Assembly (NCBI GenBank): GCA_965655095.1
Contig: OZ296649.1
Coordinates: 97,216,001 to 97,280,000 of the forward strand
Direction: 5' to 3'
Source: Haplodiscus bocki
Taxonomy: Eukaryota
DNA: 64,000 bases
The position numbers and the translations under genes are program-made. The stretch's first letter is position 1; the number at the start of each line of letters is the position of its first letter. The notes under the pieces were generated by a model, which did not search any database, had not been told where the DNA came from, and was given only the letters and a program-made list of their open reading frames with translations. Shown in pieces: positions 28,049-64,000 of this stretch.

Positions 28049-29183
28049 TGGTGGAAGGATTTCCGAGAGAAAGAATCTCTGCGGCCACGACATTGTAACA
28101 GGAGCTGCAGAACAGATTCCCAATCGCCACGACATGACCGGAGTTCACGAAGGAGTCACTTACTGCTCCCCTAGTACATCTTCAGGAAAGCAGAATAAGA
28201 ACAGCTCTACAAGTCAACCACAATTCCGCAGTGAAATCCTTCCTGCGACGATTGAAGCAGACCAAATTTTGTTGGCCCTTCAGCAGTTGGCAAACAATAA
28301 CAATTCTGCAAACTTCCATAACAATGTTAAGATAATTTCCAAATTGCCAAAGTCACTTACGACAACGACACACATGATCGAGGGGAAATCTGAAAAGTTC
28401 GAGTTGCTTCAAGATCTTTTCCAAACGAGCCTCAAAATCTATAATCAGCTGACTGAAGAGGACAGAATCAGCTACTTCCAATGTATTTTGAGGGGAGACG
28501 CATTATAAACATTCAAAAACATTGATGGCCCTAACCGAGAGAATCTGGGAGAATCTCTGGCAGTTTTTCGGAGGAAGTATAGAGAACCCCATCAATGGCG
28601 ACAGCAAAACACAATTTACAGAAATTTGTTTGCAGCCCAGCAAATCACAAGTTAGTAGAGTTTCTTGATGAACTCCAAAAACTGGCTAAAGACGCATTCG
28701 GAATTGCTGCCCACGCCATCGTTGAACAATTCATATATGCCAAAATGCCACTACACCAGAAGAAATCAATAAATCAAACCCACTTGGAGAACGGCACATA
28801 TGAACACAGATAAAAACTGTCAGTCACAATACTGCAAACACAAATGCTGATAGACCCGAATCAACGTGCCACCACTGTGAAAAAACCAGGACACTACAGA
28901 AATCATTGTAGATTGTTGAACAAACAGCGAGAACAACATGAAAATAATCAAAAGAAACCCGGAAACAAAAACGGTGACGTCAACAATAATAACAACCACA
29001 ACGAAAAAAGTAACAGAGCCGAAGGAAAACCGAAAAACCGAAAACTGTTTATCCACCAAGTGAAACTTGTGGGAAGACAAACCACTCCACAGAAAACCGG
29101 AAAGACAGAATCAGGTCCAAGAAAGAGCCAATCAAAATGACTCGAATGAAACTACTCAGGCTGCAGCCCAAAATTTACACTGA
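27638..29183 (+). pseudogene. gag: gag of element B, initiating inside the 5' LTR
   Basis: ATG 27638 MATLSKRKLAALNR..., continuing past the PBS into EGKSEKFELLQDLFQTSLKIYNQLTEEDRISYF. Frameshifted zinc knuckle CHHCEK/PGHYRNHC at ~28865-28908. Confidence 0.8.
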
Positions 29184-33999: not shown

Positions 34000-34559
34000 C
34001 TCTGTCCCACAACCGTCTACGGAACGCACACGCACACTTTCTCGAAATCCTAGGAACGTGTTATGGAACTGATATGCGGAAAGCCTACTTATTCTTCCAA
34101 GCGCCTAACCGCCTTTCAGAAACAACTATTGAACACTGCAGATCGATCGAGCAATAGAAAGTTTTGGCCTTTGCAGATACTGGGAATCAGATCCTCATCA
34201 CATCGCCGTAATATATCCCCAGATGATATACGGATCGTTTCAGGAACCATTCCGGAAAATCTACCCAAATTTGACTCCGGATACAATACGGAATACAAAC
34301 AAATATTCCTAGTATTCTGAGGAAAATTCCTGTACAGCGACATGTTTCCTACTCATTCCACCCATGTACAAAAGATGGATACTCTAACTGAATTCAAACT
34401 ATTACTAAATTTCAAATGCGAGAAGTCTATACATACATACAATTAAATTGTTAATGATATCCCCCTTGGAAAACCGGGGCATTATGGAGATCACGACCTC
34501 TTTTTCTCGCACAAGACTTCGCAAAACTCTTCTCAAGAGCAGACTCAAATGAAGGACGG

Positions 34560-37439: not shown

Positions 37440-37709
37440 CTGTCAACAGAAAAACGTATAATGGATACCATGCACGAAACTGTTGAAACCGATTGAGGCG
37501 AAAATACTAACTATTTCCTAAGGGAAACAGCAGTTGCATTTTCTCCTCCTCACAAACGGAGCGAGACAAGGACATTGTCTGATGATCAGTGGCACGAATT
37601 ACAGTAGCGGTAAGGATCGGTGACGAGTTGATATAAAAGGCAAGAAATGTGGTAAAATTTTGGAGTCAACATAGAACAACACTAGTAAATATTTGATTTG
37701 AACACAAAT

Positions 37710-38722
37710 ATTACCATGACCAGACGCCTGCTTCAAGAAGTCTCTGCTTCGACCTCGACTGTGGACAGCCTCAAGGACATCATGCTGGGGCCCCCCAGCC
37801 AACGGTACCAGGCTCGTGGTAACAACACTGTGACGCCCCTCAACTGCCCATTAGTCTCCACGCCGGTAGACGCAACCTCAATTCCGGAAACTCCCGGAAT
37901 CGTTTCGGCATCACATGGAAACAAACAGAAACTGAGCCACTGAGATGACCAAAAACCTGCAATGTTGATTAGGGAGCAAGAAACTCTCAAGAACAGCCGT
38001 GAGAAGACTCTTCGGTGTTCGCTTTGTCCGACTCTTCTTCTACTCAACATCTTCTTCCGAAGTCGGCGAGCCAATCTCAAACTCAGAATCAAACACGTCT
38101 GTCCGGGGCAATCCAGGCTCATTGGAATGAACCACTGGTTCACCGGAGCCTTCATACACTAACACACAACAGCTTCACGAAGTCATCTTCATGTTTCAGC
38201 GCGCGCAGCACAACTAGTTTAGAAAAATTCAGTCACTGGCAACAAAAGGAATTGTAAGAGCAAGGCTAATGGTAAAAGATGAAGATTTGAAAGCTCACAT
38301 TGTGGAAGGTGAGCGGTGTCAACGACACCCTCGGACACAATCTTCTTCGCCAGTCTCTCTCGACGAAAGACTTCTGAGAGCGTGAATCCCCCAGACTCAT
38401 ACCCAAAGACCCCAGACTCGTCAACGCCATCAACAACATCAACGTCCTCATCTTCGTCCTCCATATTTGCCTCAGAGCCAGCTTCGGCCTCGCACACACC
38501 ACTTACTTCGTTTTGTCCCTCTGGACCTCTCACAGGACTCTCCTCCCCTCTTTCTCCAGCAACTTTCTCTACGGGGACATCAAAAGGGGAAGGGGAAACA
38601 GCAGCTTGAACAGCTGACTTATAGTCCGCTTGGGACGAACAAATCTCCTCAAGCAAGAGGACGCTCTCTTCAGACATACTTCGGAATTCAATTCGAAGAA
38701 CGTGGCTAATAAGCCACTGCAT
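37710..38722 (-). pseudogene. Upstream antisense exons / second antisense gene of element B (acidic, low complexity)
   Basis: ORF 38219-38722 with EDEDEDVDVVD; candidate 63-nt intron GTGAGC...CCAG at 38236-38298; ORF 37733-38155. Confidence 0.4.
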
Positions 38723-39089
38723 GGTGGATTTCTAGCTTCATTCATGAAAGTCATTATTATTTTAGTTTTTACCCTGAGCGATTTGTCTGCCAGCAATGAC
38801 GTCATCATAATATTTTCATGGATACATTGAGGGAAGGAACTCACAATTCTTCATTTTTCACTTTTCCACTGTCGTTCCTTGATTTGTTTACAAGTCATCA
38901 ACTTCAGCTATACCACCAACTACTTGCTCTCAGCAATTAGAATGCTACCGCCGGAACTTCAAAGCATCTCCCGCCTGGCCAGGCATGCCGACTAACTTTT
39001 GTTTGTATTATCATTTCTTCAAGTAACTTCATCAAATTCAACAGCTCATATTACCTCCCAAACTTCCTTGTCTCCAATAAATTATCGCG

Positions 39090-39756
39090 ATGAACCCACT
39101 TCTCTCTTTGGATTCATCATCTACAGAATCAGATGTTTTTTATGTGGTGCGCTCATCGGAAGAAGGTAGCCCTATCAGAAATACCTTGGCAGTCCTCAAT
39201 TCTACGGAACTATCAGGAGCTGTGGCAGTGAGACAATCACAATTTCCTCCGTTGCCTCTCCGGAACCACGAATTGTGATGGTAGGTTCAGACTCTAACGA
39301 ACCCACAATTCCATATGGTTTTGGCAGTCAACATCCAATTGTGCCACCCAGCCTCAATGATTTCAACATGCCGCCCAACCCATTCAATGTGTTGACTACT
39401 ATGGCCGTGGTCGATTGCATGAGGAATACAGCCCCCAATCACCGGAGCCATCCATCCCGTCTCCAATTTCGACGCCCCCAATGTATGTGAGTACCATTGA
39501 AGGCTGGGAGACAACGCGCACAACAACGGACATTGCCACATTCTATACTGACGATGAGCCCACACGAATCTTTTGGGATGTTTCTTCAAGCCACACTTTT
39601 AACACCAATGAGCCAAGAAATGTATCTGTCGCTTCGAGCCCTTCCTGCATACCGCCGCGTCCACGACAACAAATAAGGAAGCTGAGGATGGGGATGTCTT
39701 TTCACAGAAAAGAGGAATGTCGCAGCACAGCTGCGAGGCATGCGGCTAACACTTAG
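39090..39756 (+). pseudogene. Ser/Pro-rich sense ORF crossing the PPT into the 3' LTR of element B
   Basis: Three overlapping ORF pieces (39090-39278, 39275-39490, 39415-39756) of similar S/P/T-rich composition, consistent with one frameshifted ORF. Confidence 0.4.
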
Positions 39757-41375
39757 CAGGCAAAAAGACAACACGATGCCCAGGAGAAACGCAGACATTA
39801 TATACATTTAAAAAGAATCTAACTATATATAGACCATGTACTTTTAACTGTTGTGCATATATACGGATACGTATAAAATACGTATCCCTGCCAATGCACA
39901 TATATATGGGTAAGTATTTATACGGAACCAAACTGAGCCGGACTAGGACGGAACCGCTGCGGAACAAACAAGTATTCTTGGAGTATTATTAACCTAAAAG
40001 GTGCTTTTTCTATATTAATATACTTGTTCAATTAATAAACATTAACCCGACCTTTTCAATGGAATCTGACAGTTAGATTGATTGCAAGAAGTGCAGTTTA
40101 AGTAGAAAGTACGGTTAAATCGATGCTATAAGCACAACAACTGGTTTGAATTATTTTGACTATCGGAGTGAAAATTTGATCCGTACGTGTTCCGTCTTTA
40201 CTAGTCTGGTGACGTCACTAAAATTATTTCTATTACGCCGTCCTTTAGTGAATACGGAATCATTCCGGAATCACTCCTCCTTTGAGCACAGACTACTACC
40301 ACTACTAGTGAACACGGAAAAATCCGGAAACCACTAGTTGGTTGCTACTCATACGAATGAGGAGTAAACTAGTAGTGCTACTAGTTTCTCCTCATTTCCA
40401 AAGAGTAAAGATTTATGAATTGTTACTAATACTGATGAGGTGAGTACGAGGGTGATGAGTGTTTATATTTTCTGTATTATCCTTAAATTTAAAGTCACGA
40501 ATTCTGTATGTTTTACTTTTAATTTATTTCACTTTTTTAACTGGGGAAATATTTTGCTTTTTTTCAATTACGGAATGTACTTTTTAGACTGTAAACAGAA
40601 CGTCGGTCGAAAAATGGAAAATGCGCGTCCTATGAAGGAAGAAATGGATGGAAAGGTTGTTTAATTACCCTGCCAGAGTCGGCATTTTTAACTTTGATGC
40701 CACATTTTAGAAAGTACTTTTCCTGTTTGTACCTTGAATTGGAGTTTGAACAATTTTGTTTCTCGCCAGAAAAAGGTATAAAAAGTACAAATGAAAGTAA
40801 AAGTTTAGAGTTTTTTGAGGAACACTTAACTTGAGGAACACTTATCTTTTTTCTGTAGCACTGACGATTTTTAACCAGTATTTACTCATTTGTATTTCCA
40901 CTACTGCAAACTGTAACCACCAATCTGATTTTCCCTCCACGAAAAAACAATCAATTACTTATCACTGAAAACATGTTTCCCGTAGAAATGGCAAATTGAA
41001 ACAAAAAGAAAATAGAAGCCTTAAACAAAAAAAACTGTGAGGAACATCCCAGGAGCAACTTGAGAAAAAACTCGAATGTTTATTGATCACAGGAGTTCTA
41101 CATAACTAAAGTTTCTGAGGAAAATGAGGAAAGAGTCACTAAAAAGTTGTCACACGAATTCAGCAGAACGGAAAACCGCATACTAGATGCATTGGCACGT
41201 CTTGATGACTTCCTCACAAACCAGCAAATTCAGGGCCACTCCGGAACCGCTCCGGAACATTTTTAGTGTAAACGAAGTTGCGAATAAGGATGACTCCCAG
41301 AGTAACCCTCATCCTGGAGCGGGCATCTTTAACAACCAGATGACACAAAATCTGGCCCAGAAGATGACAACGACA
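39718..41375 (+). repeat. 3' LTR of element B
   Basis: TGTCG...CGACA, preceded by the PPT; direct repeat of 26318-28048. Confidence 0.92.
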
Positions 41376-42899
41376 TTTACTTTTTCCTATCTTTTCAGGA
41401 CAAAATTTCTACTTAAGAATATAGTTTTTACTTCAACAGCACCCTGAGAGTAAACGCAAAAAAAAGTCTATTGAATGTAGTTTCGACGAAGTTTTTCCGG
41501 TTAGGTTTTCAAAATTGTTTGAAAAACTTATAGGAAAGTTTGTGAAACTTTGTAAATGGAACAGATAAGGCGAAAAGATGAAACACGAGACTGAGAAGAG
41601 ACGTTATTATGAGATAAAAGAAAGCATATCAGATCATAACTTCAGATTATCATCTGCTTTTAGAAGTCAGACAAAACAAAGTTTCAAAATAAAACAAAGT
41701 CCGAAAAAAGATGAATTTACTCACTTGTTCGCTCAGAAGATTTCCTCAAAAATGATTACATTCACAGAAGATTTGACAGCTGAGAATCAAAGTTCAATTG
41801 GGCACTGTGAACATAATTCTCCATGCTCAATTTTATCTCTTTCCGATGAAAATTAAATGAGAAAATGTTTCAATTGGATTATTTTACGTCCAAGGCTGAT
41901 GAAATATTTTTTTTGAACTGAAACAAAGTAGATCATCAATTATATTTTTTGAGGGAACTAAGGCTCATCAATTTTTCAAACTGAATAAGTAAAAACAAAT
42001 CCTTTAATTTTGTGTTTCATTCAAAATAATCTGAGTTACATTTTAGTCTTCAAAATTGTTATTAATTAGACATTTAGATGTTGTTTTACGTTTCCTCGTA
42101 CACCGTTGGTCAGTAATGTACCAAACATGAACATTGATAGTTGTTATTTCACCTCTGTAAGTGTCAATTTTCGGAGTTAGATTCGAAAACAGATTATCTA
42201 AAGTGTAAAAACAAAGAGAAAAGTGGAAACTTTTGAGTTTTCATTCGAAATTGGTAGTATTTGTACACTAATAAAGGATATTACATCATTTCTGAGTCAA
42301 CGACGGTCGATGTTTTACGATCCCTGCTTATGGATAGTCAGATTTTCAACGTGTTGGGATCAAAATTTGCCTATCAGTATACTCAGATTTAGTGTTGAAC
42401 AACCAAAGCAAAAACATTACAATCTTTACGTTTTTATCTTCCCTCATTTTTCTATGTTCTAACATTTGATTCATTTCTTTTCTATTCAACAAATGACTTT
42501 TAAAAAAGGGAAAGATATCCACAAAGAAATGAAGAAATTTGTGTATTATTTCTGAGAGAAATGAGAAAAAATACAAGGGTATAGGTGGTGTTATACTTAT
42601 AGGAATAGCCTAATTGTTGTGATAAACTTATTAATTAGATCTTTTCAGGGATTTGATGCGGAGGTGGCAGTTGACACTCCAGATCGTTTGATTCCTATAT
42701 TTACTTCTCGGTTTTGCCATAGTACTATCGGTATTGCCGTAGTACTATCGGTATTGGCGTAAAAACATGGAGAAGTTTCCAATACCCTACTATAATATTC
42801 TCAACCCTCAAGACACAAAGTACAACAACAGGCCACCTTGATAGGTTCCAAAAACGTTTTGTATTGATATAAATTGGTTGCAAACATTATTTCTACAAT

Positions 42900-43654
42900 A
42901 TGGTCAAAAAAGGCAAAAAAAGTTCAACAAAAACCTGTCTATGCTCTACATGCTCTGCTGAATTATCAGACAATTCCAATTCCATATGTTGCGATTCGTG
43001 TAATAACTGGCATCATGGGTCTTGTGTGAACTTATCTGCTGAAAATATTTCTTTCCTTGGGAGTAGTAATAACCTTTTTGGAAATGCAACAGTTGTATTT
43101 CCATTAAGGTTACGCCACTTAAAACACTGGAAGCGAAAATTGACTCCGTCCTATTCAAACTAGAAGAACCCAGACCTGAAATACAACCAGCTCAACCCTC
43201 AAAACCTATAGAAGTATTACAAAACAATAAATATGATCATCACTATAGAGTTCGTATTTCCGGAATTAGTGAAAGCAAAGAAAAATCATTTATTGATAGA
43301 CAATTTGCTGATAAAGAAAAAGTGGAAGAAGTCTTCAAAAAACTAAATGTCAATTGTCCAATTATCGAAACAAACAGACGTGGTAAATTCATTGAAGATC
43401 GCCAAAGAAAACTAATAGCTACTTTCTCATCACCATGGGATGGGCGTTTAGTAATATCTAGTGCAATTCAGAAAAAATTATTTGAAACCGATAAAATTCT
43501 TATTACAACGGATTTATCGCCATCAGATCTTGCAATAGAAAGAAAACTATTATCAAAGCGCTATGAACTGATATCCAATGGTGTGCCAAAAGAAACTCTG
43601 AAAATACGTTACTTGAAACTTTATCAAGGCAATAAAGAAGTAAACGTCGACTGA
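42900..43654 (+). pseudogene. LINE ORF1 with N-terminal PHD finger (one frameshift near 43080)
   Basis: CSTCSAELSDNSNSICCDSCNNWHHGSCVNL (PHD) and RISGISE...RRGKF...RKLIATF...ITTDLS (L1/CR1 ORF1-type RRM/CTD). Confidence 0.85.
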
Positions 43655-46430
43655 CTAAATAAAGAAGCAAAATGTCTTTTAATCAATTGTCCGAGCCTTC
43701 CCTCACTTAATCGTCGCTTATCGTTACTATCAAAGGTAAATTTAATATCCGCCGACATTGTTTTGTGCACCGAAACTTGGCTCGATGAAAATTTTACACA
43801 AAATATTTTTCCTGACGACAATTATTCAATTATAAATCGTTCCGACAGATATAGTGGTTCACACGGCGGTGTATTGGTTCTGTCTAGAAAATGTTTAAAA
43901 GTGCGCAAAATATCTCTAAATGGCGATTTTATGTGCTCAGTTATCTATAACAATGTACTTATTATTACCATATACAATCCACCCCTTACCAGTGATTTTC
44001 GCATCAAAGATATTATTCTGACAGAGAATATCGATACAACTATTTCCAAAGCCAAATGTGTCAACTTTATTATTTTTGGTGATTTTAACATGCCAAAAAT
44101 CGATTGGAACAGCATGACTGAAAGCACAACTTCAGAGTAACTCTTATTCCTCGAAATGTTAACTAATAACGGCTATGAACAAATTATTACTTCGCCCACC
44201 CATCAATCTGGAAATATTCTCGACTGTGTGTTTATAAATTATGGGTCAACGCATTTTACAATAGATGAAAATTCATTTTCCGATCACTATTTTGTTGAGT
44301 TCGACATTCCGAGAACACACCCTTCATGTGACTCTACATCTCAGCCTATACTTTCCCTTAAACCAGATTACCCAATAATAAATCAGTGTATCGGATCTAA
44401 TTTACTCTCATCTTTTATACCTGATACGACTGCCTCTTATTCCCACCGGATTGGAGAATTAACCTCCATTATTCAACCCTTCTTCAAACGTAAGCGGCAA
44501 AGAAGAACCCAATTTCCTAGCTTTTACAGTTCGCACACTATTCACATGCTCAACAAGCTCCATACTACACACAGAAGAATCAATCGACAACCAACGTATA
44601 TTACCACACCATCAGTTCAAATATCAACCACCAATGTACTACAATCTATTGCTCTTGATACCCATATATTCATTGAAAAATTTGCAGACGCGAATCTGAA
44701 CTTTAATGATTGCTATAAACTGATCAATTCTTTCCAACGCAGCAATAAATTACCAGCTTGTATGACTCCAAACGATGAAATCCTAATTGATGATCTTAAT
44801 AAAGCGAATGGTTTCAACAAACATTTTTGCAGTGTTTTTAAGAGAGATGGTCTACCATTTTCTGATTTCTCTGAAAATACCCTAAACAATATTGAATTCA
44901 CAATTCAAGACGTCGATAAGGCTCTACGACAAACAAAACGTGGTTCTAGTACAGATGCTTTTAATGGTGATTTCATCTTACAGACTTCTAATGCACTGGG
45001 TATCCATTACCATAATTTATTAAAGAATTTGTTAAAACACTCATATTGGCCAAATGAATGGAAGCAAGCTATAATAACACCCCTTCATAAATCTGGTAAT
45101 ATCGAATGGATATGTAAATATAGACCAATTTCTTGTTCATTAAAATTATCAATAGTATTTGAGCGCTTACTGTTCAACAAGTTATATGATTTCTTCTCCC
45201 CCCAACTATCCGGCTCCCAATTTGGTTTTATGAGACGCAAATCCACGGTGCTACAACTAATAATTTATTTGCAGGCTATCTACAATAACGTTGACACAAA
45301 TACAGATTGTTATGCACTTTATCTCGATTTCTCAAAAGCATTTGATAGCGTATCTCACGCGACGTTGCTCGAAAAATTACGCCTTTTTGGTATTGGAGGA
45401 TCTTTGCTAAGGTTGCTATCGAGCTACCTAACAAATCGCCTTCAATGCGTTAAACTCAACAATATTATATCAGCGTCATTACCAGTCACCAGTGGTGTGC
45501 CTCAGGGATCGGTTTTGGGTCCACTCCTATTTTTGGTTTTTATCAACGACCTGCCAATCCAAGTATCGCACTCAAAAACATTCCTGTATGCCGATGATCT
45601 TAAGCTTAATCATAACAACCTTGTAGAATTGCAAAATGTTATATTAGCACTTTCTCAGTGGTCACAGGTAAACAAATTATCATTCAATGCCAAAAAGACA
45701 CAGCTCATTTCATTCGATTTTCGGTCTCAAGACTGCATCACAGATAATCCAGTTCTTATCCTGGATGACCATGAAATATTTCTTGAAAAAAGCGTGGTTG
45801 ATCTTGGTCTATTTTTTTCAAGCAACTTAGCTTGGTCAAAACACATATCTGATCGTCTAAAGGCATGTTACATTAGAATTATATCCCTAAGAAGATGTCT
45901 ACCGCTGCATTTACATAGCCAAACCAAGACTAAATTGTATAAGACCTATATTTTGCCAGAATTACTTTACGGGTCACAAGTTTGGTCCCCGAATCGGAAA
46001 GACCTATCTAAATTAGAACAGTTCCAGAAAAACGTCTCAAAGTGGATATGCAAGGGTGCTACATACAAGACTAGATTAATCTCGTCCGGTTTACTTCCTA
46101 TAAATCTTCTCCTGAAAATAAACGATCTGCTATTTCTCAACCGAATCCTAAATGGCATGTATGATTTTGATTTTCATAACTTTTTATCGATCATTTACCC
46201 CTGTGACAGTTTTTACTACAACACTAGATCTACCCTGAAGCCCGTTCTCAAGGTTAAATCAACTCGTACAAAACAGGCCGACAATCACTTTCCAGCGAAT
46301 TGTTCCCCTGTCAAACTGGTTGATGAAGGAGCACAATGTCGACTCTTTCGTTGAGCCTAACATCTTCAAACCTCGAGTGAAACAGTTGTTCAAACGCTTA
46401 TTTGCATCAGTTGAATATGTTTTATAATTT
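43655..46430 (+). pseudogene. LINE ORF2: apurinic-like endonuclease plus reverse transcriptase
   Basis: EN motifs TETWL, GDFNMP, ILDCVF, SDH. RT motifs YLDFSKAFDSVSH, SGVPQGSVLGPLLF, YADD. One stop at 44138 and a probable late frameshift near 46290. Confidence 0.92.
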
Positions 46431-50183: not shown

Positions 50184-50828
50184 TGTCATGTGAAATATCT
50201 GTTTTACATTTTTTGCAGATTTTTTGGTCAATGCAAAGTTATCGAAATATCCGGTTGTGACGTACCTGAAAAATATACGTCATACTGTCCCTTGATAAAA
50301 CTACCAAAAAAATATATACATGAGTGAATGAACTTTGATGAAAGGTCAATGTAACTTGAATATTTATGACTCATGATCAGATTGGAGAAATTGGAAAGGA
50401 AGTGGGCCGAGCAGAACAACACAACACGAGTGCTGAGGAAACATCAGAGATTACCAACAAATACAGCACCCCCTCGCCCAGAAGGAACTAACAACAAAAC
50501 AAACAAATTCTCCTGAATATTTGAACTTTGATATTTGTACGTATATATACATTTCTTCTATATTTAACCATAGTGTTGAGAAAAGTGAGAAATTATAAAA
50601 AACAACAAGAAGAACGAACCAGACCCGAGAACAGTTGAAAAATAATCTTACCTTCATCGCTGTTTTAAATCACCGAGCTGTGAGTAGTAATAAATCAGTT
50701 CCAGTCTGTGGCCATCTAATAAAATCGCGTCTTGAGATACTCACTAAATCAGTGTCCTCCGCTCACCCAAAAGGGGACAAAAATTCTAGACATGGAAACA
50801 AAAACAAGGACATGAGAAGTTCTTGACA
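50184..50828 (+). repeat. 5' LTR of element C
   Basis: TGTCATGT start (same as the element A 3' LTR) and TTGACA end directly followed by TGGTGACAG at 50829. The partner LTR is not in the window. Confidence 0.7.
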
Positions 50829-51275
50829 TGGTGACAGTCGATAATTGATCGGACCAATATCCAACACCTACGGGATTCACTCTACACACAGCTCTCACGA
50901 TACATTGTGATTGACATCAATACACTGTGACAAACACTAACCAAATGGGACATCACTGATGACTATACAAATGCGATGCGGTAACAGAGACGCCTTTCAT
51001 CTAGACGAAATTGCAGCCTGATGACAATATACAGCGTATTCTACATGGAAGGATGATGGTAGTGTGAACACAATAAAGTGCAGATAAACTGTTAGATACA
51101 ACCATATGTTCTGTTTTATTAGTCACCTAAAGCTTAAATATGGTGCTAAAGTGCTTAATTCCTAGTGCTAATTACACTTACTAATCTTATCGGGGTACTT
51201 TGCTCAGCTTACCAGAAAGCTCAAGGCGATCTCTCTAAATCGTTAACGTGATTGACAAAGTGAATAGTGTGAAAA

Positions 51276-52510
51276 ATGGCACAAGCTAACGTGACAATTA
51301 CACCTTTTACGGGAGAAACGAAAGAGGATTTTAACCAATTTGAAGAATTATTCAGAGGAATTATTGGTGTAGCAGGAATTGCAGGCGCACAACAAGCAAA
51401 TTTTTTGCACTTACATTTAAAAGATGACGCACTTAGTTTTTTCCAAGAATTGCCAGTGGCAGTTGGAACAGACTTAGATCAGAGTCTTGCTGCATTGCGA
51501 ACACGGTTCGTTAATAATGAATTGCAACAGATCCATGTATTAAAATTAGAAAACCAAAAAATCGACACAAAAACGGACACACCAGAAAATTTTCTTGTAC
51601 AACTACAAGCACTTGCAAAAAAGCATATCCAACGCCCGTAATACCGCCGTTGCTCCAATTGATGCACATGCAGCTGATGCCGCAGCAGAAGCCGCTCGAT
51701 TTGCAACAGAAACAGCCATAAATGTAACAACATTAGCAGAGGCTGAAACCTTTAAAGATAATCAAATCCGTCGAGTTTTCATAAAAGTAATGCCGGGATG
51801 GCTACGGTCAAAATTGATGGAGCGACCGGCAACAGACACAATTCAGGATTTGTGCACTTTTGCGAGTAGACAAATCACTATTCGTGATATGTGTCGAAAA
51901 GACGATTATCCGGAAGATGGATTTAATCAAATTGAAAATCACTTGTCGGACACTCTAATTAATGTACTTTCTAAAATTAGCCAAACTCAGGATAATCTTC
52001 AACAAAAAATAACCGACATGAGCAACAATGCTAACAAACAACCAGAAAACTTTCAAGCAAAACAAAATACAGCGCAAATTTTAGTTCCTTATGACCAACA
52101 GACTCCATTGGGACAATTTAACCGTAATCCAAATCCATTTCGACAACGACCTCCACGTTTTCAATCTATAAGTTTTCAACATCGACAACAACGACCGTGG
52201 AGTAGTAACAACCAAAATAATCAGAATCCACGACTTAACTTTGGTGGTAACCAAATGCTTCGAGTTCCTCCTAATGCAAATGGTTGATATAATCCAGTAC
52301 ATAGCCAACAACCAGTAATGAACCGCCAACAAAAACCAATAATATCAGCCACAACAACAATCATACCAGCATATGTTTTTTACAACGTCTTCACAGATTG
52401 TTTGTCATAATTGTGGTTACTCAAACCATAAAGCTAGCCAATGTGCCGCTTATAAACGTCATACACAGTCAGGCGTGCGGTTTCCTTTTAATCGTATTCC
52501 AAAAAACTAA
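51276..52510 (+). pseudogene. gag: gag of element C
   Basis: MAQANVTITPFTGE...; Q/N/P-rich linker; zinc knuckle CHNCGYSNHKASQC (~52403-52444); ends IPKN*. A few frameshifts and stops. Confidence 0.88.
52501..52507 (+). promoter_or_regulatory. -1 ribosomal frameshift slippery site A AAA AAC at gag-pol junction
   Basis: CCA AAA AAC TAA in the gag frame, an X XXY YYZ heptamer immediately before the gag stop. Confidence 0.75.
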
Positions 52511-55500
52511 TGGAGCCACCCGTTACTTCTTTACATATACCAGAATCTTATAGTAACCTTTCCAATTTACATGTACGTAATCATACTATCTATAGTATCT
52601 TACTCTCTACCTCCTAAAGCTTTATATTTATATAATATTAACGGCACACGTGCTCCAGTTTTATCTTATATTAAAAAGTCTTCAAAAGCGGCATTAAAGT
52701 CTTTGGTAAAATTTTTCTGACATTTCAATTAGCGCAGCGTGTATTTTGCGAACCTTTTCTTATTTGAGACACTACTACTCCTATTAATCTGGGTCAACCT
52801 TTTTTTCTTAAACATGATGTCACTATTCGAGCGGCACGAAATCTTCGTTTTCCGGACTTAGCAGTGCATATTAACGAAATCAAACCAATTGATGGTCTGC
52901 GACGGACGATTAAACCAACAAAAGTTTCAGTTCGGAACGCGAAGAAAATAGTCATACCATCATATGAACAGAGAACAATCCCATTTGCTTTACGTACAGA
53001 GGATGCATTAACCGATTTGAGTGGACTGATTATTCCCAATGATAATCTTGAGCGCGAATTTGATATTTCCATTATGTCTTCAATGAGTACAGTGGAAAAA
53101 GACAATCTCGTATACATAATTGTGCTTAATATCACTGACACCCAGTAACGATTACTCGTGATAACGAATCAGCGAAATTTGCGATTTTAACAGCGAATCA
53201 AACTGATAAATTGACACCAATCGATCCAAATTTGTTAAACGTTTCTTATAGCATGGGCCCTGAACAGTTTGAGTCGACCATCAACCAATTAATTCGTGAC
53301 GAAAATTTCGTTGTTCCTTTACAACCGCCAAAACCGGAGCCTGAGTTTAAAACCTTTTGGTTTCCTACCCCAGAAACATGTGAGGACCCGAATCAGTTAG
53401 CGCCGATTCAATGTGAGATTTATAACCAGATTTTACGAATCAAACAATTAGAGCCACGGGATCCACAGAACAATGAAATGGATTGACGGGAATTTTTGGA
53501 TCTATTTCCATGGGACAAGTCAGTCCTAACGTCAGAACAGCGTGCGGAAGTTCATCAGCTTTTAACTAAATATCACGATGTTTTCGCAAAACATCGTTTT
53601 GATATTGGACACAACACAGAATTCAAAGTAAAGTTGACTCCGGAACATGACCAACCGGTCTACACACAAGGTCCGCCGAGTCCAATTCATTTACGAGACG
53701 AATTACATGTACAATTGGCTCTGTTTCATTATTTTGGTCTTATAACGACGCTACCGTACTCCAAGTATAGTAGCCCTGTTTGCACAACGCAAGAGTAATG
53801 GAAAACTTCGTTTGTTGAGGGATTTGCGACGCATCAATCATCTTTTACGTAATGATTATCATAACACCATTTTTCCTATTTCAAATTTGCATGACGCAAT
53901 TAACCATTTTGCGGGCAAACGACTTTTTACGAAGTTGGATTGCTCCCAGGCTTACCATTGTGTCCAGATGGCAGACGGAACGTCAGTGCAATTCTTTGCA
54001 TTCAATTATTCATCACGCACATATGCCTATCAACGATTGGCGATGGGCCTGAGCAAATCCGTAACCGGGTTTAGTTCGTTAATCCGCCATTATCTTGATG
54101 GATGTTTAGCTGCAGGCCTCTGTACGCAATTCATGGATGTTATCGGCAGTGCCGTATCCTCTTTTGAAGAGCTTATACCTGCCCTTGATGCTATTTTCGC
54201 CGCGATTCGTCGCTCAGGACTTAAACTAGTCCCCGAAAAGTGCAAAATTGCCACAGCATCCATGCAGTTTTTGGGAAATGTGATCTGTGAAAATGGAATT
54301 ACCCCGGAGAGTGAGAAAATTACGAAATTTTTAAATAGAATACGTTTGCCGCGTACTGTGAAACAAGTGAAAAACGTCTTATTGGGTTTGTCCAGTTTTC
54401 CAGTAATTTTTTCTCTAATCTTGGAACTAAATTAATACCATTTTGTAAATTGTTGGAAAAGGAGGCGAAGCTTAAAGTTGATGAAACTCATGTTGAGGCA
54501 TTGGGAGTTCTTAAACGAGACTTGCTGGACGAAACAAACACCACTCTCAGGTTAGCCAAACCTGGTTTGCAATACGTCCTACTTTGCGACGCAAGTTATC
54601 ATGGCGCCGGATTTGTCCTAATGGTTGAGGATGACACAAAAGTCCTCCCTTCCGGAACAGCTATGCCCCTGTTTCGTTTGGTTCTCATTTAATACCGCTC
54701 AGCTGAAATTTTCTATTTATTATAAGGAGTTTCTTGCTGTTTATTTTGCCTTTGATACGTTTGCACACTATCTTTGGGAATCAAGTAAACCAGTCATTAT
54801 TCTTACCGACAACAAAAGTCTTACGAGTTTTTTTCAATCAAAAACAGTACCACCTTCGTTATGGAATCGTTTAGACAGGGTTCTGTCGTTCAATTTAACA
54901 ATTGCGCATATTCCAGGTCGAGCCAATTATGCCGCTGATTTCCTATCACGTATAGAAACAGATAAATCGTCGCACTTAGAACTAAAATTAACTGATAAAA
55001 TTCCAGTGAGAGAAATCGAAAATGAGACAGAAGCGAAACAACCTGATGCTTCGTCGGCACATAATGAGTCCTTCGATGAACTTTTCTCGGAAGAGCCTTT
55101 GGACCCGAAGTTGGAAGTCCAGTTGAGAAATTTGGGCGTCTATGATGCATATGTTGAACAACGCCCGCAGCGGGCTAGAGTCGATGGATCGTCAGTGGTT
55201 GGTTTCATCCACCTCGTTCAAAAGCGCCCTAGCTTAATGTTGTTCAGGAACCAGATTCTATGGATTCTTTTTTGACGACCGAGCATTTTGGCGAACTGAA
55301 TTTGGCTCAGGAACAAGCGAAAGACCCTGACATTCAAGAAGTCTTACGTTAGAAAGAAGCCAACACTGTTCCTTCTTTACGATATGCTAATAATACACTG
55401 CGAAAATACGCAAAGCATTTTGCAAGCTTGGTTGTGACAGACGGTGTTCTTTACCGCCAGTTTTTCGACGCAGTGGGTGCGGTCCAAGCTGATCAATTTT

Positions 55501-57765
55501 GCGTTCCAAGACATTTGTGGAAGGAAATTATTTATCGACTTCATAATTCCGCCACCGCGGGTCACCTAGGAATAGTTAAAACCATTCATGAATTTCGTAA
55601 AAGATTTTACTATCCTAGTTTTACTGAACATTATGCTGACTTTATCAAAAATTGTTTCACATGTCTTCAGCTAGAGCGAGTACTGCAAAAACAAATCCGC
55701 CCCTCGTTAGGGTCGTTGACGACTCAACAATCTTTTCCGGGCGACATGTTCCAAGCAGATTTGGTAGGACCCTTACCGAGTGATGTGTAGAAGTTTGTTC
55801 TGACCGGTGTTGATGTTTTTACCAAATATTTGTTTGCGCCTCCACTTACTAACGCTAGTGCTGACACTGTTCCTCGAGAACTTGTTCGATTCTTTTTTCA
55901 ACACAGTTATTTTCCGCGTACCATTGTAACCGAATCAGGTACCAATTTCACTTCTGAGCTTATGAAGGAATTGGCTACCTTGCTTGAAATTAATTTAAAA
56001 CATGCTTCTCTTAAGCATCCACAAACCATTGGAGTAGTGGAACGATCACATGCCATGCTTAATCTTATTTTGAAATGTAATACTGATGAACATTGGACTG
56101 ATTGGCTCAAGTATGTCCCATTAGCTACGTTTCTTCATGATACCAGCTATCACTCTGCTATAGAATAAAGTCCATCTACACTTTTCGTTGGACGTGAGCC
56201 GATTGAACCCCTTGTTTTGCGTTTTTCTCGAAAAGCTTTAGAAGCAGTGGAAGCTGGTCCTGATTTTGTACAAGAACTTCAGGTTGCGATGTTACGAAAG
56301 TTTGAACTGACTCAACGGAAACTTGTTGAGTCCTATCATCGGTATCGTTCTTATTACGATCACAAAGCCACTGCATAACCGCTTGTGTTGCATCATTTTT
56401 GTCTGCTTTTGAATCCTAAAATACTTACTCAAAAAGCAGGTACTCCGAAATCCTGGCCAACTTGGATTCCGCTGTACCGCGTGGAAAAGGTTTTAACGCA
56501 TTCTAACTATATTGTTAGAAAATTCGGCACGTTTTTTACGCAGTGTGTACATCGTATACGCCTGCGACCAGTTTCTCGTCATACTCCTCCTGCGGACCTT
56601 ACAGTTGTCGATCCGTCGAATTTTACTCCGGATCCGTCCCGACGTACTACCGGTATGGAACCTGAAGTGTTTGATGAACATTTCCCTGCGTTGTTTATTG
56701 AGGATCCTGTTTCTTCACCGCCGCGTCTTGCGCCTCCGCCGCCGGCGACAGTGTCACTTCCATTTTGAGCACCGCCAGCGGGCGCTCCCGTAACATTACC
56801 TCCGAATCCAGTTGACGCTCCATTTGAAGCGCAAGGGTCTAGTACCTCTTCTTCGCAATCATCGTCTCCACAGCTGTCGAGCGATGAAAATACTTCGAGC
56901 TCATCTGGTGAGGCTCCTCCTCCCTCTCCTATTATGTTGCGCCCGCGACCTACAACTCGTAGTGTCCCAGTGTCGTCGTCACAATCTAGCGACACAACAC
57001 GCCCCAAAGTTACTTTTAACCCATTCAAGAAAGTCCGTACGTTCTCTACCGTACCCTATTCGGAACTTGAAGCTTCCTTAGCTGCAGGTGCAAAGCTTCC
57101 CTCTGCATCGTCGCCACATATACCGAATTCGCCACTGACGGCGAGTGCAAAACGGCACTGCGATGAAGCAGTCTATTTTACGTAATCGTACTTCATTTAC
57201 TCCTTCGCGAGCGACTAAACTTGATCTGGTACGTGCTAGTATTCAGAAATATGCTACAGGAAAGTCCTCAACCGCCTCGTCCACGTCCACAATGGATCCA
57301 GATTCTAGTCTTAATTCTTTAGTGACCCCTGAGACCGACCACTTTACATTGGTCGAAGCATTTATTTCTAGATCTCCTTCACCTATCATTCATTGTATTG
57401 GTGGAGATCACTTCCTACATTATTCGCATAAGGACTCGTTTTCCTGGCTTAATAAACCGTGGGATACGTCCTTGCAACACTGTCAATCTTTTCCGATCGG
57501 TACAGTAATTCCGATTTTTGATCGTTATGGTTATCCAGTTCTTTTTTACTTAGTCACTTGTGACTTGAGTTTTCAACCGGATGACCCGCCCACGCGTATG
57601 AGTGCCTTCTCCGCATTTTTTTACACTACCTATCATTTTGACTTTCCTACATTGGCTTTAGAACGTAATAATTTTTCTTATGATGACAATCTTTTACAAA
57701 GTGCGTATAACATTCTTGATCACCATGCATCTCTAAATGGTGTTCATTTTTACCTCTATAAATAG
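52508..57765 (+). pseudogene. pol: pol of element C (PR partly deleted, RT, RH, IN, Pro/Ser linker, macro-like tail)
   Basis: LGQPFFLKH (PR C-terminus). KLDCSQAYH and QFMDVIG (RT). LCDASY and AHIPGRANYAADFLSR (RH). HNSATAGHLG...CFTC (IN zinc motif). QADLVGP, TIVTESGTNF and GVVERSH (IN core). Confidence 0.92.
57330..57765 (+). CDS. Divergent macrodomain-like module at the end of element C pol
   Basis: SPSPIIHCIGGD...GTVIPIFDRYGYPVLFYLVTCDLSFQPDDPPT...PTLAL...VHFYLYK; same position and motif order as the element A remnant. Confidence 0.55.
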
Positions 57766-58649
57766 TTTCTGTATCTTCCTAGTACTGGTACCTTTTAATT
57801 CGCTATTTAGGACATTGCAGTTCTCCCTAGGTTTTTTCTTGCTTCAATCGTTGCCGTTTTGGTCTCTAAAGACGGAATTTTCTTCCACACGAGACTTGAC
57901 CTCTCTTAACCCTCGAGATCTTCTGTATTTTTTTCATCATTTTCCCCCTTCTCACCCTTTTGATCGCCCTCAGGCTTTTCCTATTTTTGCGTGGCAATGC
58001 CCTACGCCATTTTTCCGAGTGCTGCGTGAGACTTTCGGCTGTAAAGTGGCAATATTTGTCGAAATTTTGACGATTTTCCCCTTATTTCCCCCGATTTTTC
58101 GAACAAAATTTAGGTTCTCGACTTCTAGATTTCCGATCGACCCCAAATTTCCACCGTGCACTAGTTTAGTGCCCTAGATTCGATTCCCATTCTTAAAATT
58201 GCCAAAATCGAACATTTTATATGCCATGCTACTGGTTGCGCTATACTCAAATTTCCGCAAAATGACCACAAAATCGATCACAATCTTCCGGTTTTGATCG
58301 CACAATCTCGTTTTCATCCTTGCTTTTGCCTTCTGGGACCTTCTTGCCCCAATCCCAGACCCATCAAGGCAGTTTGTACTTGTCCTTAGCCTTTTACCGG
58401 TATTCTTACGATATTTTCCGGATTTTCACACGTTTTGAATGACCATGTTCTCATTCAATCTTGCATGTTTTGCCTGTGTGGGTATCGACTTTTTCTCCCT
58501 GTTTTTTTTTCCGGTTGCTTCCCCGCATTCGAGGACATTCATCCAGCTGCGTTCGACCCACCTCTTGGTGGAGATTTTATGGTTTTACCTACATTTTTCC
58601 TAGAAATCATTATATGTCCCTTAGTTTTATTTTACATGATGCTGAATTT

Positions 58650-59587
58650 CAGTACCGATCTTCTCCCCTCATTTCGGCGACGTCCTCTGTGCCCTGCGCC
58701 GCCAGTTTCGATAGTCAGGCAGTAGACGGCCCGGCTTCGTCCTCTCTCCTGACTCCCCTTGTCGCTCCTTCCGCGGGTTGCTGCTCCTCATCCTCTTCTT
58801 CACGTTCATCGTCATCACTAAAATATCAACTGACTTTGTCCTTTACTGCGTCCGTGTTTTTGCCCCGTTAACCTCGTTTTTTTTGTAATTCCTAACCTAT
58901 CGTCAAAGGCGAGTGGTTGCGTATGGTACTGGGCCACTAACTGGTTGCGAGGTCCAACGCAACAACAAACTGCATGAAAGAAGACGGCTCACTCCTTCTT
59001 TGACCTAATCGTGTGGGGATAAAACGCACATCTTTTTCCATTTGGGTATTGCCAGTACACTATGCATTTGACTCCTAGTGTATAGGCCATGCCTAGGAAC
59101 TGAAACAATCAACGCTTAGTGTTGTATTTTGAACTTGTTTCTTCATTTTTCATATGACTTTCACTTACCCAGAATTCTTGCACACTGCCACCTGTCCGGC
59201 TTTCGTGCACATCGAAGACTGAGAGGTGGTAGCCGAGGTGCGCCTTTGCCAACTCGAAGAACTCTGGGGATCGCATTGATGTGAACAGGCCTTGACAAAG
59301 CTTGGTGCACGACTCGGTGCCTTCCTTATATTTCGGATCTACAATGCACGTTCTTTCAATTGTCCCTGTTTTTGGGCAAATAGATTATACTGAATGTACC
59401 TTTACTCACTTGAACGTCTACCTGTCAACACATATTGCAGTGCACTGATGGCACAGTCCCCTCCTCCTTCAGCATGATTGGAACGATGGGAGATGGATTT
59501 TGGCTCCTCCAACTTAAAACTAGGACCCCGCAAAGCGTTCATAGTGTCCTTGTGGAACGTATACCCAAACTTCTTGCACCATTTTTA
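58650..59587 (-). pseudogene. Antisense spliced OTU-like cysteine protease (putative deubiquitinase) in element C
   Basis: AEGGGDCAISALQYVLTG, then intron 59366-59409, an open 197-nt exon ending GGSVQEFW, intron 59100-59168, then FLGMAYTLGVKCIVYW...QYHTQPL. One TGA in the third exon. Acidic tail; upstream exons probably extend to ~60230. Confidence 0.6.
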
Positions 59588-61290
59588 AGCTGAAAAGTCT
59601 CAGGAGGCTTGGCACAGATGGTTTGGCCTTGAGTGATTGTGAGGAAACAATCAGACACTCTCGCAGTACTTTGACACACCATAGGACTGGATGTGACAAG
59701 CGACCCAAACCACTGTTACACATTCAATCGTTTATAACCATGAGTGACCAATAAATTTTATACTATATGAACAGTGACTAACCGAGCATTAGCAGCTTGG
59801 TTGCCTCCAAGGAAGTCAGGAAGCTCAAACCCCTTCTCATTTAGAAGTGCAGCGTGGGCCCGCACGTTTCGTGAATGTCCTGTCGTCGTCTCCGGCGGAT
59901 GTAAATCTTCAAGAGCATCCAGACATTCTGAAACAGTTGGTACCAACTTGCCTTGGTATAAAAACTTCCCAGCGACAGACTCCGCGAACGATCCCACATC
60001 AGCTGCCGATCTTCCTGACTTAGAAGATAGGGCCATTTGAAGTCCTCCTCCGAGTCTTTTGAACGTAGCGGGGCAATGTAACACGCACGTTCAGCAGAAT
60101 GCATTGCTTCTCTGAAAACCAGCACAACATGTAACCCTGATAGAACCGTCCAAATAACACCATTTTACAAAAGAATAGATCAGACCCAAGCGATTGATAA
60201 GTAGTTGAGGCCTTAGTTAGAACGGTTAGCAACGAAAACTATAGAACTTAGTCCTTTAGACAATAGTTGAAAAAGGTAACTCAAATAAATAAAAACGAAA
60301 AGGTGTAAATGAAAAATTCCCTAAATTAAAATATAAACAAAACCGAAATTAATTAATATAAATCTGTATCTACAAAGATATTATAACGGGTGCTATCTAC
60401 AATACATACTGTCTAACTACATAATACAACTTATGACTAATAATAATTGTTTATATAACGACTTTAGCATCTACAATTAATAATATTCACTAGACTAAAT
60501 TGACAGTAATAATGATAGAAACTACGGACTGTCTACATATGTATGAAGCTACGGTATGTACAATTTACACTATTCTTTCGAGCTACGGTTTCGTCTACAG
60601 TATCTACGTATCTACAAGCTAAGTATATACAAATAAATAGAATTAGAATTACTATGACTAAAATTGTAAAACTTGCTCGAGTATCGGATTGTCCATTGTC
60701 TATCTGTGGACTACTACTGATGATTAAACTTCTACAGAGAGGATATAATCTTCTACTAAAAGCTCTACCACTATGACTACTGACTATGGTGCCGTTGCTA
60801 CAACAGTAAATACTAAAGCTACCAGAAGGGAGAAACGGGCACGACGACATTTTCAAGCGTTTCTGAAAGTTTCGCAAAACCTCATTTGTTTATGTTAATA
60901 TCATTAAACTTGCAAGTAAATAAATATGAATTACAAACTTGTTCAATTTTGTGAATTTTCGAAGATCAAGGAAACTATGACTTCAAATGGAAGAGTACAT
61001 AACAAGTCAAAATAGTTAGTATTTACGACGTAGACTATAAAAGGAATGAATTCAAACATTAACAACGCCCACGGTTCGGTAAAAGTTGATAGTTGAAGTA
61101 TGCCTTACTTATTTTGGTGTGTGGTTGACTATTTGATTACATACATGACCTTTGGTTAGTCAACAGGAAGAACGAGTCACCAACCCAAAAAGAATTCCGA
61201 CGCAGGAACATAATTGCGATAGATTCTTGCCTTCAAATCAGCTCACACATTCCTAGTTTTGTAATTTTGCCACCGACATTCTTGCATTCG

Positions 61291-63632
61291 ATGAAAATGA
61301 GTAAAATCTTTTTCCTCATTATAACATCTAACCTCATATACTTAACTCTACATCTGACTGCTTCGGATCAGTACGCAGAAGTTTTGGCAAGTGGAATCAT
61401 GTTTCACGAGGTGTCAAAAATACTTCGCGTTAAAAAATGTGTAAATATCGAATTTTTAGTCCCGTTTCCAAAGTACACGTTTGAAGTCAAATCGCAGATT
61501 GAAAAACGATTACAAACATTTGCTGAGATGTGGGCGACGCCTACAATCTTTTGCCCAATGGACGAATCGCGCCCATTTAATGCATCTAGCAAACCCTTCA
61601 ATGTAAATTGGTTGTATACAAAACTCTTGGCGGAGCTGCAAGCCGCGAAGAATGATGTATTTGAGATGGGTAACGAAACTGCAATCCTTCTGACAATGGA
61701 AGAACAACGTCAAAGACGTCAGAAGCGAGGTCTACCACCAGCCGCGGTAGCATTAGCTGGCATAAGTGTCTTCGGATCTGGAATCCTGATGGGAATCAGT
61801 GCATTGGTATCACTGAAATCTTTGGATCTTGCCAAGACACAGGCCGCCAGAATGGTGAGAACATCGACCGATTGCAGCAACACGCCTCAGCGCTTACGAA
61901 TTTTGTTATGGAAGTTGCTCAAGAACACGACGAGAAGTTTTTCCTGATCTACAATGAATTAAAAAGGATTCACCAGATACAGCAGGAAATGGAAACAAAT
62001 CAGAATCGCAATTGGGATATAGTCGATTAGCAATTCGAGGTCTTCAATAATAATTTCCATAGTTAGAGGGATTGTACACAATTACTGTACACACAACAGC
62101 AACTTAATTTCAATTACGATACTGTAACTGCCTTATTGTTGACACTTTATGCAGATATCAAGAGCTACAGAGCAGCACTGTATGGCTACAGACTCAACTT
62201 GATAAATGCAGTTCCCAGCTTGTTTGATAAACGCCTTCCCGTATCGCTAGTGCCACGTGCTTCCTTAAGTGTCATTCTTGAATCTGTTCACGAAGCACAA
62301 ATGAAAAATCTGGATCGTCTCACGCTAGCAATCCCTTTGCAAGACATTACGTCTTACTATGACGCCAAGCTAGTACGAGAGATCTCTACAGTACCACAGG
62401 GTCTCCTGCTCACATTAGCGATTCCATTGGCATCTAGTGAGACAATTTCGATGTGTTTCGAGCACATTTAATACCGATGCCCAAAAAGGATCCTGATGTG
62501 GCCTTGCAATGGAAAATTGAAGGACCTTATTTGGCTGTGAGCGAAAATACGATGGAAACAACTGTATTGTCATTCGAACAGATTGAGGATTGTCTCGGCT
62601 CCGCAAGATACAAAATCTGCCATAAGACTATGGAAACGCATTTGTGGCAGAGTTCTTGTCTGGCGACTCTCTATTTCGACAATGCGATCGCTGCATTGCA
62701 AGTGTGTGAGCCAGAGCAAGTTTCTCTCCCGACACCTGAGAAAACAACTAATCTTGGATATGGAATCTGGCTGATAACCTCAGCATCTGATGCCTTCACC
62801 TTGCGAGAATTCACGCGGGGAACAACCAATTCGGTCCAACGAACCGCTATCCCTGGGTGTACCATTTGTATTATCACGCTGGAGTGTGGAATTCAGATGG
62901 CCAGTAAGCATATCAAGGTTCGGCCGGACTTGGAAAGTTGTGATAAAATCCCAGCAAAACGGCTAACAATTCAATTACCGGATCTATTGGCAGGAATACT
63001 CAGCAAAATTCCGCTGATTGAAGAACTTCCGTATTATTGGACACGCGCGGAAGCAACATCAGCACTTCTCACTGAAGTCCGAGCGGAGCTAGTTAAGTCT
63101 CAACATGTAGTGGATGTCACTCATCTCGACAAATTGGCTACTCCGATCGCTGCCCGCATGACAAAATTGAAACCAACGCTAGTTAATAAATTCAAAACTT
63201 ATGTTCCCATACTTACCTCTTTAACTTTGACAGCAGTTGTATTTGTTGCAAATCTCCTTCTTCATCTCCTGGTTATATATCTATATTATAGATTTCTTCA
63301 TCGATTTCTCTGCATTCGAGATTTGGTTCCACATTTCATAGGCACCCCAACTGGAAATGTCCCGCTCAAGCCGCTGGTTACGGTGGACAGTTCCCATAGT
63401 AAGGCAGCTGCCACCTACCTGGCCAGGAAAGAAAAGAAAGTTCGCATTAGTACAGGCAACTGCACTTGCCAATTTACAGACAGAAAAACTCATCAATTTG
63501 CGGAAGTCACTTTCTGACCCTCGAAAGTCGGCTCCTAACTTACATGAAAGTGGATCGTCTCAGACCACAACTGCCCTTCCTCTCACGCTCTCGCGAGTCG
63601 AAATCGTAAACGACGCGGAGAGCAGCATGTGA
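61291..63632 (+). pseudogene. env: env-like class I fusion glycoprotein (baculovirus F / paramyxovirus F / errantivirus Env type)
   Basis: Signal peptide KIFFLIITSNLIYLTLHL. Furin site RRQKR (61714-61728) followed by fusion peptide GLPPAAVALAGISVFGSGILMG. Heptad-like helix, Cys-rich ectodomain, TM LTSLTLTAVVFVANLLLHLLVIYLYY. A few frameshifts and one stop. Confidence 0.88.
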
Positions 63633-64000
63633 ATCTTGGATGGTGATTTTGAGTAGAGCACCCTGTTATGAAACAGTACCTTTATGCAGTTTATACGCAA
63701 ACTTAATATAATCTCAACAAAACTTTAACAGAACATTAACAGTTTTAACGTAAACAACTTTACTGTGCTTACTTTAATGCAGTGTAACAGTTTTTCAAAA
63801 CTCTTTAATTCTCATTGTAAGCGTTTTTAATATAATATTCTGGGTGGCTCCCAAAATCAAAACAAAAAAAAACACATTTTGCATTACGTTTATTCATTCT
63901 TTCTCTGTCGATATTGTATTCGATGCTTTGTTGCCTTCATAATTTTTCTTCTAATTGGCATTTCTTAACAATCATTATTCATTGACTTGCTTTGTGACGC

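Follow-up and report, generated by a model that had tools for sequence, protein, structure and literature searches.

A predicted five-exon antisense gene in a decayed, env-bearing Ty3/gypsy element of Haplodiscus bocki

The locus

The window considered here, the whole stretch of DNA that was analysed, comprises 64,000 nucleotides of Haplodiscus bocki (GenBank assembly GCA_965655095.1, contig OZ296649.1, positions 97,216,001 to 97,280,000 of the forward strand). Its right-hand part carries what is, judged by its sequence, a real Ty3/gypsy (Metaviridae) long terminal repeat (LTR) retroelement in a dead copy. The order in this family is LTR-gag-pol(macro)-two antisense genes-env-LTR, with a macrodomain at the end of pol. 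An earlier note on the same DNA had described a genome of gag, pol with a macrodomain, an antisense OTU gene and env; all of these parts are present, but gag, pol and env are broken and the copy is not intact. Searches were run in a genome of 1.5 Gb in 6626 contigs, taken as an animal genome. A DNA search with the element gave 57 matches, from copies 84-93% identical down to relatives near 70%. Introns are normally purged from whatever passes through an RNA genome, and a multi-intron antisense gene pair that appears to be selected across several env-bearing families is unusual.

The predicted spliced antisense gene

The principal antisense gene lies on the minus strand at 58715 to 60104, comprises about 356 codons and is broken in the window copy. 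Splice sites, phases and the ratio of nonsynonymous to synonymous substitutions (dN/dS) define five exons (60104-59783, 59670-59410, 59338-59169, 59099-58897 and 58817-58715) separated by four GT-AG introns. The antisense coding region with an OTU-like cysteine motif reported earlier is there, but it is a five-exon spliced gene and not one open reading frame (ORF). An alignment of nine copies contains conserved blocks separated by variable stretches of 63-112 nucleotides (13 in one copy), which on the minus strand begin with GT and end with AG. In the eight decayed copies that span the gene, GT occupies 27 of 32 donors and AG 26 of 32 acceptors. Joined together, the five exons yield 1074 aligned columns in a single frame, with between-lineage mismatch of 0.25, 0.19 and 0.50 at the three codon positions. 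The spliced gene has a dN/dS of 0.17 against 1.12 and 1.71 in the shifted frames, and by this measure has evolved under purifying selection. Identity between lineages is about 69% in exons and 48% in introns, in a measurement whose boundaries were 1-4 nucleotides off.

The gene extends well beyond the window family. With a protein search 45 matches turned up in the genome, some of them distant (25-41% identity). The positions of donors 1-3 and of acceptors 1 and 3 coincide in the alignment of all nine sister-family loci; intron 4 gave no alignment between lineages. Three of these nine loci keep a stop-free frame of 271 codons with the Cys and His motifs, one has a single stop and five are frameshifted, acceptor 2 having been chosen by a script among nearby AGs. 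The gag-pol(macro)-antisense-env layout recurs in all six of the distant loci that were extended (of ten fetched). The antisense gene lies within 6 kb upstream of env on the opposite strand at 27 of 54 env loci and on the same strand at none, the 27 being a lower bound because 115 of 731 candidates were scored. Eleven matches in a protein library are exon-sized pieces, several of them ending at or just past donors. For two relatives that were tested the best identity in this genome is no higher than 63% and 44%, which means that at least one further assembly is a source of related proteins.

A functionless passenger, whether a nested insertion or decayed host DNA, would fit the fact that every copy of the window family that was read is broken. 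Such a passenger is contradicted by the selection signal, with dN/dS values of 0.17 here and 0.39 in the second antisense gene, and by the fact that at least five lineages, with products about 25-60% identical, have the region in the same place and its introns at the same positions. This explanation is extremely improbable. The anatomy of the element and the splicing of the antisense gene are very probably as described. What can be held against this is that splicing is inferred from conservation only. No RNA record was listed, and joins at the predicted introns were absent from four contig runs of one study, which yields no evidence on expression.

The second antisense gene

A second antisense gene at 60850-60533, also on the minus strand, was missed when the antisense content was described as OTU alone. 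It encodes a small cysteine-rich, single-pass membrane protein of about 90-110 residues with a C-C-x-N-G motif and one transmembrane helix, and in other copies with a basic tail. Homologues occupy the same position in all six extended sister loci, two of them frameshifted, and several carry a signal peptide. The dN/dS of this gene is 0.39, compared with 1.3 in shifted frames. The Pfam family Orthoreo_P10 gave E 0.12, which is not significant, and neither the N-myristoylation motif nor the ectodomain of about 30 residues that mark FAST/sORF2 fusogens was found. A pyrimidine-rich AG shortly precedes the start codon of both antisense genes, with no matching donor established for either. Given these unpaired acceptors, the antisense unit may be polycistronic and trans-spliced. 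Two sister loci (L087:6439-6756 and L092:3220-3513) carry a third antisense ORF of about 100 residues, located between the gene for the membrane protein and the spliced one; it has no significant Pfam match and was not seen in the window family.

The antisense unit could also be regulatory, limiting or tuning the element by way of its antisense RNA or of a zinc-domain protein that acts as an integrase decoy. HBZ of HTLV is an antisense regulatory analogue, and the gene is antisense in all 27 of the pairings found. In plant gypsy elements the products of antisense ORFs are nuclear and have been proposed to be regulatory, in the accessible text of PMC7264820. Neither a decoy nor a non-coding role would need the Cys and His motifs, yet these are conserved between lineages, and a regulatory unit is an unlikely explanation.

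What the spliced gene encodes

The predicted product begins with an H-H-C-C zinc motif, continues with an OTU-like Cys/His domain and ends in an acidic tail. Exons 1-2 encode H-x7-H-x35-C-x2-C, with both histidines and the first cysteine present in 12 of 12 rows and the last cysteine in ten. In exons 2-4 a multi-family profile finds a Cys box, then a helical part and then a His box, which is the order of an OTU domain. Against Pfam-verified OTU domains of the same genome, hhalign gave a probability of 82% and a score of 39, compared with at most 26 in 100 shuffles. Of three OTU pieces scored with the same profile, two reached about 20 bits, compared with at most 8.7 in 3000 shuffles. On this evidence an OTU fold of the spliced product is likely, not proven. 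A profile search of PDB suggested a kinase, rejected at E 0.3, and a HIPIP match (E 0.0015) was set aside as chance.

Several results speak against the OTU assignment. The profile built from the window family only reached 6.4 bits on OTU and was not significant, Pfam gave no OTU match with intron-containing translations as queries, and the PDB profile search with the antisense protein gave no OTU. From these failures it could be argued that the antisense protein is real and spliced without being an OTU, its Cys/His spacing a chance likeness. Two separate blocks nevertheless align in order with the Pfam-verified domains, above all shuffles, leaving chance likeness only a small share of the probability. 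A model of the antisense protein that included intron-coded stretches reached a mean predicted local distance difference test score (pLDDT) of 39, and the structure search with it found nothing at Z 5 or more.

Where the gene came from is a separate matter. OTU domains are common in DNA transposons, including Ginger1 and Helitrons (PMC2836005, as far as its text was available), which makes descent from a transposon as good a fit as the analogy with RNA viruses. The antisense gene could be a captured Ginger1-like transposase gene that lost its DDE core, retained its zinc module, OTU domain and introns, and now serves integration or chromatin targeting, not counter-defence. Ginger1 transposases combine H2C2, DDE and OTU parts and have one to four GT-AG introns (same source). 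The domain order here likewise runs from zinc motif to OTU, and the nearest OTU matches belong to further elements with long ORFs in this genome. On the other side, the zinc module gave no significant profile match to the tested integrase N-termini, no Ginger sequence being among them (18.2 against 21.6 in shuffles). That result is also a point against the proposal developed below. The capture itself would be a good account of origin and would weaken the analogy with RNA viruses. Taken whole, with its role in integration or chromatin targeting, the capture is rather unlikely.

The genome contains 104 Pfam OTU matches in loci L065-L084, many of them in ORFs of 2000-2800 residues and in tandem arrays with a period of 15-17 kb. 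One of these ORFs resembles a Helitron Rep protein.

The macrodomain at the end of Pol

A TARG1/OARD1-type macrodomain occupies 57322 to 57765 on the plus strand, identified by profile, structural model and a dN/dS of 0.34 in the window family. It ends Pol in 10 of 120 listed Pol relatives. The macrodomain of one relative matches human TARG1 at E 4e-19. With a profile built from nine Pol relatives the window piece scored 19.8 bits, against at most 8.0 in 2000 shuffles. A model (pLDDT 80) found human TARG1 as its best match (Z 14.0, root-mean-square deviation 3.0, 135 aligned residues), placing it in the macro fold and the TARG1 subclass. The macro call is strongly supported. One caution is that the model alignment contained canonical relatives, so the TARG1 match is not independent of the profile score. 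Pfam found no Macro, OTU or env family in the window pieces, the degenerate macro piece matched none of 180 candidates in a word-based search, and Atlas gave it scores of 0.84 only.

In TARG1 a lysine is catalytic and glycine-rich loops serve as phosphate loops. The position of the catalytic lysine holds Lys in none of nine copies of the window family, a point against the proposal developed below, and the glycine-rich loops are lost. Canonical motifs are kept in sister families and database relatives. In the window family the domain has probably kept no more than a non-catalytic role, in binding or as a scaffold. The element had been credited with two erasers of host protein modifications; both domain calls behind that idea survive, the macrodomain strongly and the OTU moderately, yet as a pair of erasers it fails for the window family because the catalytic lysine is missing. 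TARG1-type macrodomains are abundant in long ORFs genome-wide: of 5873 candidates 150 were scored, and all 150 matched. Some lie about 300 nucleotides before an integrase zinc domain (e.g., C7:3329857 beside C7:3330565), which suggests that in other families the macrodomain sits within Pol, ahead of integrase.

The LTRs, gag and pol

The 5′ LTR (573 bp, TG...CA ends, plus strand) runs from 50256 to 50828, its ends being set by matches to LTRs of other copies; the start had been placed at 50184, 72 nucleotides too early. It is followed at 50829 to 50837 by a primer-binding site, a 9-nucleotide match to the 3′ end of tRNA-Leu(CAG). The match is longer in copy L002, whose pattern equals the end of tRNA-Leu(CAG) genes in 2 of 12 fetched loci. 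A tandem array with a period of about 424 bp (G000:C1:161097000-161130000) contains the 15-nucleotide pattern of this site. It was discarded as a tRNA source since no tRNA was called there. Target-site duplications of 5 bp, the remaining hallmark of Metaviridae, are present in both of the other copies that have both ends. The LTR pairs of those copies are 100% and 95% identical and, together with the duplications, indicate that the family moved fairly recently. Copy L002 is internally deleted and lacks gag and env, with two identical LTRs of 597 bp, and suggests recent movement in trans. At G000:C1:33380000-33402000 three partial copies (L033-L036) stand in tandem with a period of 7.6 kb.

A broken gag on the plus strand at 51276 to 52510 is represented by ORF pieces with a weak DUF1759 match; in one sister family gag has a weak zinc knuckle. 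An A-AAA-AAC heptamer at 52501 to 52507, directly before the gag stop, is a candidate -1 ribosomal frameshift site and suggests a shift into pol. It also occurs in five of seven other copies, the remaining two having been viewed at premature stops. The broken pol (52501 to 57765, plus strand) encodes protease, reverse transcriptase (RT), RNase H, integrase, linker and macrodomain, and Pfam confirms the gypsy-type order from protease to integrase (PF00078, PF17917, PF17921 and PF00665). Ten in-frame stops and three frame changes break the pol alignments. Weak dUTPase matches (E 0.0002-0.03) lie between protease and RT in Pol relatives P0129, P0130, P0154 and P0164. A non-coding patch at 58120-58310 is conserved in 70%-identical relatives, has short palindromic motifs and no codon signal, and is possibly a promoter or RNA element.

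The element is 14.4 kb long with a pol-env gap of 3.5 kb. A 3′ untranslated region occupies 63518 to 64000; a purine-rich tract and the 3′ LTR (L014:1115-1687) lie past the window end, the LTR being 98.8% identical to the 5′ LTR. After this LTR, in the stretch L014:1115-2450, a primer-binding site and 765 bp of leader and gag start are repeated at 99.0% identity to the 5′ end. This is either a tandem duplication or an assembly artefact, so the LTR identity may date the duplication and not the insertion.

The envelope gene

The broken env lies at 61291 to 63517 on the plus strand. It encodes an F-type class I fusogen with a furin site at 61708-61728, a fusion peptide from 61729 and a transmembrane helix at about 63203-63290; the earlier note had recognized a furin-cleaved class I fusogen. 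Two stops and two frame changes interrupt it, and env dN/dS is 0.09. As in errantiviruses, env is a third ORF with signal peptide, furin site, fusion peptide and transmembrane helix. At least 132 env relatives were found among 8000 candidates scored, and the basic furin motif R-x-[KR]-R occurs in 35 of 41 long ones. Baculo_F (PF12259) appears on 3 of 120 listed env relatives and weakly (E 0.003) in 2 of 33 scanned. Atlas gave a full-length relative 0.95 with Baculo_F and Fusion_gly clusters, a result of low recognition value. The evidence for homology to baculovirus and paramyxovirus F proteins is weak but concordant. A likeness to influenza HA2 (E 0.01) was rejected as fusion peptide and heptad only. 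IMG/VR contained no env relative, and a metagenome search returned one 3.8-kb contig. Env is by its sequence F-type and ordinary for its class, already described across animals.

Placement and other elements in the window

A quick RT tree of 85 rows, GyDB reference clades not among them, placed the window family in a clade of 16 rows with 100% support, 11 of them labelled with a macrodomain. That clade sits inside a long-branch lineage of 65 of the 85 rows without informative names, and no named member was found among those read in ten clusters. An accessory-gene-rich, env-bearing gypsy lineage, as proposed in the earlier note, is supported by these data, nameless in the databases searched.

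Two further decayed LTR elements bear on the claim that the layout is shared. The element at 3475-18007 has pol (6483-10343), a related env (15039-17102), a 3.5-kb spacer and a weak macro match (11318-11395, 11.8 bits) that go with the layout, but antisense-gene profiles gave no match in it. For the element at 26319-41376, a macro-less branch with LTRs of about 1.7 kb that are 81-84% identical, the claim does not hold: no env, macro or antisense-gene match was found. A stretch of about 5.5 kb past its pol contains remnants that look like antisense coding sequence and include a C-x2-C...H...H motif near 37300-36670; they may come from another kind of antisense cargo gene. A separate RT ORF at 43073-46354 (737 residues, PF00078) probably belongs to a non-LTR element, and an assembly gap of 200 N lies at 18190-18389.

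Proposed life cycle and role

Overall, the locus is probably best explained as a dead member of a complex Ty3/gypsy lineage that carries env and would have the following life cycle. Sense RNA from the 5′ LTR would give Gag and, through a -1 frameshift, Gag-Pol. Priming would be by tRNA-Leu and integration would create the 5-bp duplication, and furin-cleaved Env would allow particles to pass between cells. Transcription of the antisense genes would start at a promoter inside the element, on the opposite strand, with introns removed from the antisense RNA only. The packaged RNA would be the sense strand, in which antisense introns stay unspliced and so pass reverse transcription. That antisense introns survive this step is a logic established with retrotransposition reporter cassettes.

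The zinc-OTU protein would be a deubiquitinase or deSUMOylase of papain-like type and the macrodomain of Pol would handle ADP-ribose marks; between them they would keep host modifications off Pol or the integration complex. This functional reading is tentative, and falls somewhat short of being probable. A larger claim, that the lineage is a 'complex retrovirus' by an undescribed route, setting an intron-containing antisense cluster of active deubiquitinase and cell-surface protein, with a Pol-borne ADP-ribose hydrolase, against ubiquitin and ADP-ribose defence, must be considered unlikely. ADP-ribosylation is mentioned in connection with L1 silencing in the accessible part of PMC4695847.

A multi-intron antisense gene shared by diverged families would point to a general route by which LTR elements take up complete spliced genes, which standard ORF callers split into unnamed pieces. 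The lineage also makes it possible to test whether ubiquitin and ADP-ribose marks serve animal hosts as a defence against retrotransposons, families of canonical and degenerate macrodomain providing a natural contrast.

Comparison with known systems

In the literature no LTR element with this layout was found and none joining macrodomain and OTU, the search having lain outside Repbase, Dfam, GyDB and most subscription journals, so that an existing annotation is possible. Env-bearing gypsy elements are themselves well established, in keeping with the earlier note: 'ancient errantiviruses' with F-type env have been described across animals (Chary and Hayashi, eLife, PMC13524379, main text). They share the Ty3/gypsy pol order, gag-pol-env, an F-type env with furin site and fusion peptide, and a non-insect animal host. 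The words macro, OTU, antisense and accessory are absent from that main text, and its seven supplements, in cells of up to 400 characters, gave no match to one RT motif. According to the main text, the first filter of that survey allowed at most 1 kb between pol and env and at most 10 kb in all, so it would tend to miss elements with a 3.5-kb gap and a length of 14.4 kb. In the available description of Oikopleura Tor3b/4b (PMC4402516), with which the comparison was by description only, neither a macrodomain nor an antisense coding gene was found.

The membrane protein recalls the FAST-like sORF2 of Drosophila MDG1-group elements (PMC11952523, in the text available), likewise of about 100 residues with one transmembrane helix followed by basic residues. 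In contrast to sORF2 it is antisense and cysteine-rich, lacks the myristoylation motif and has a longer ectodomain; a signal peptide occurs in sister families and env is also present. The macrodomain is like human TARG1/OARD1 and bacterial DarG in sequence and fold. It differs from them in being fused to a retroelement Pol and, in the window family, in having lost the catalytic motifs.

Plant gypsy elements such as Grande, RIRE2 and Retand likewise have, downstream of pol and before the 3′ LTR, a conserved ORF in antisense orientation, which in Grande has its own promoter (main texts of PMC7264820 and PMC11963269). The products of these plant ORFs have no clear database similarity in the accessible text of PMC7264820. 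No intron-bearing antisense cargo was found in the available text of PMC7264820, PMC11963269, PMC5408684 and PMC6431247. The word 'intron' is absent from the main texts of the first two, whereas the present gene has introns and an F-type env downstream. Ginger1 shares with the antisense gene an H2C2-type zinc motif followed by OTU and GT-AG introns (PMC2836005, accessible text). There, however, these parts accompany a DDE core and terminal inverted repeats, whereas here they form a cargo gene inside an LTR element.

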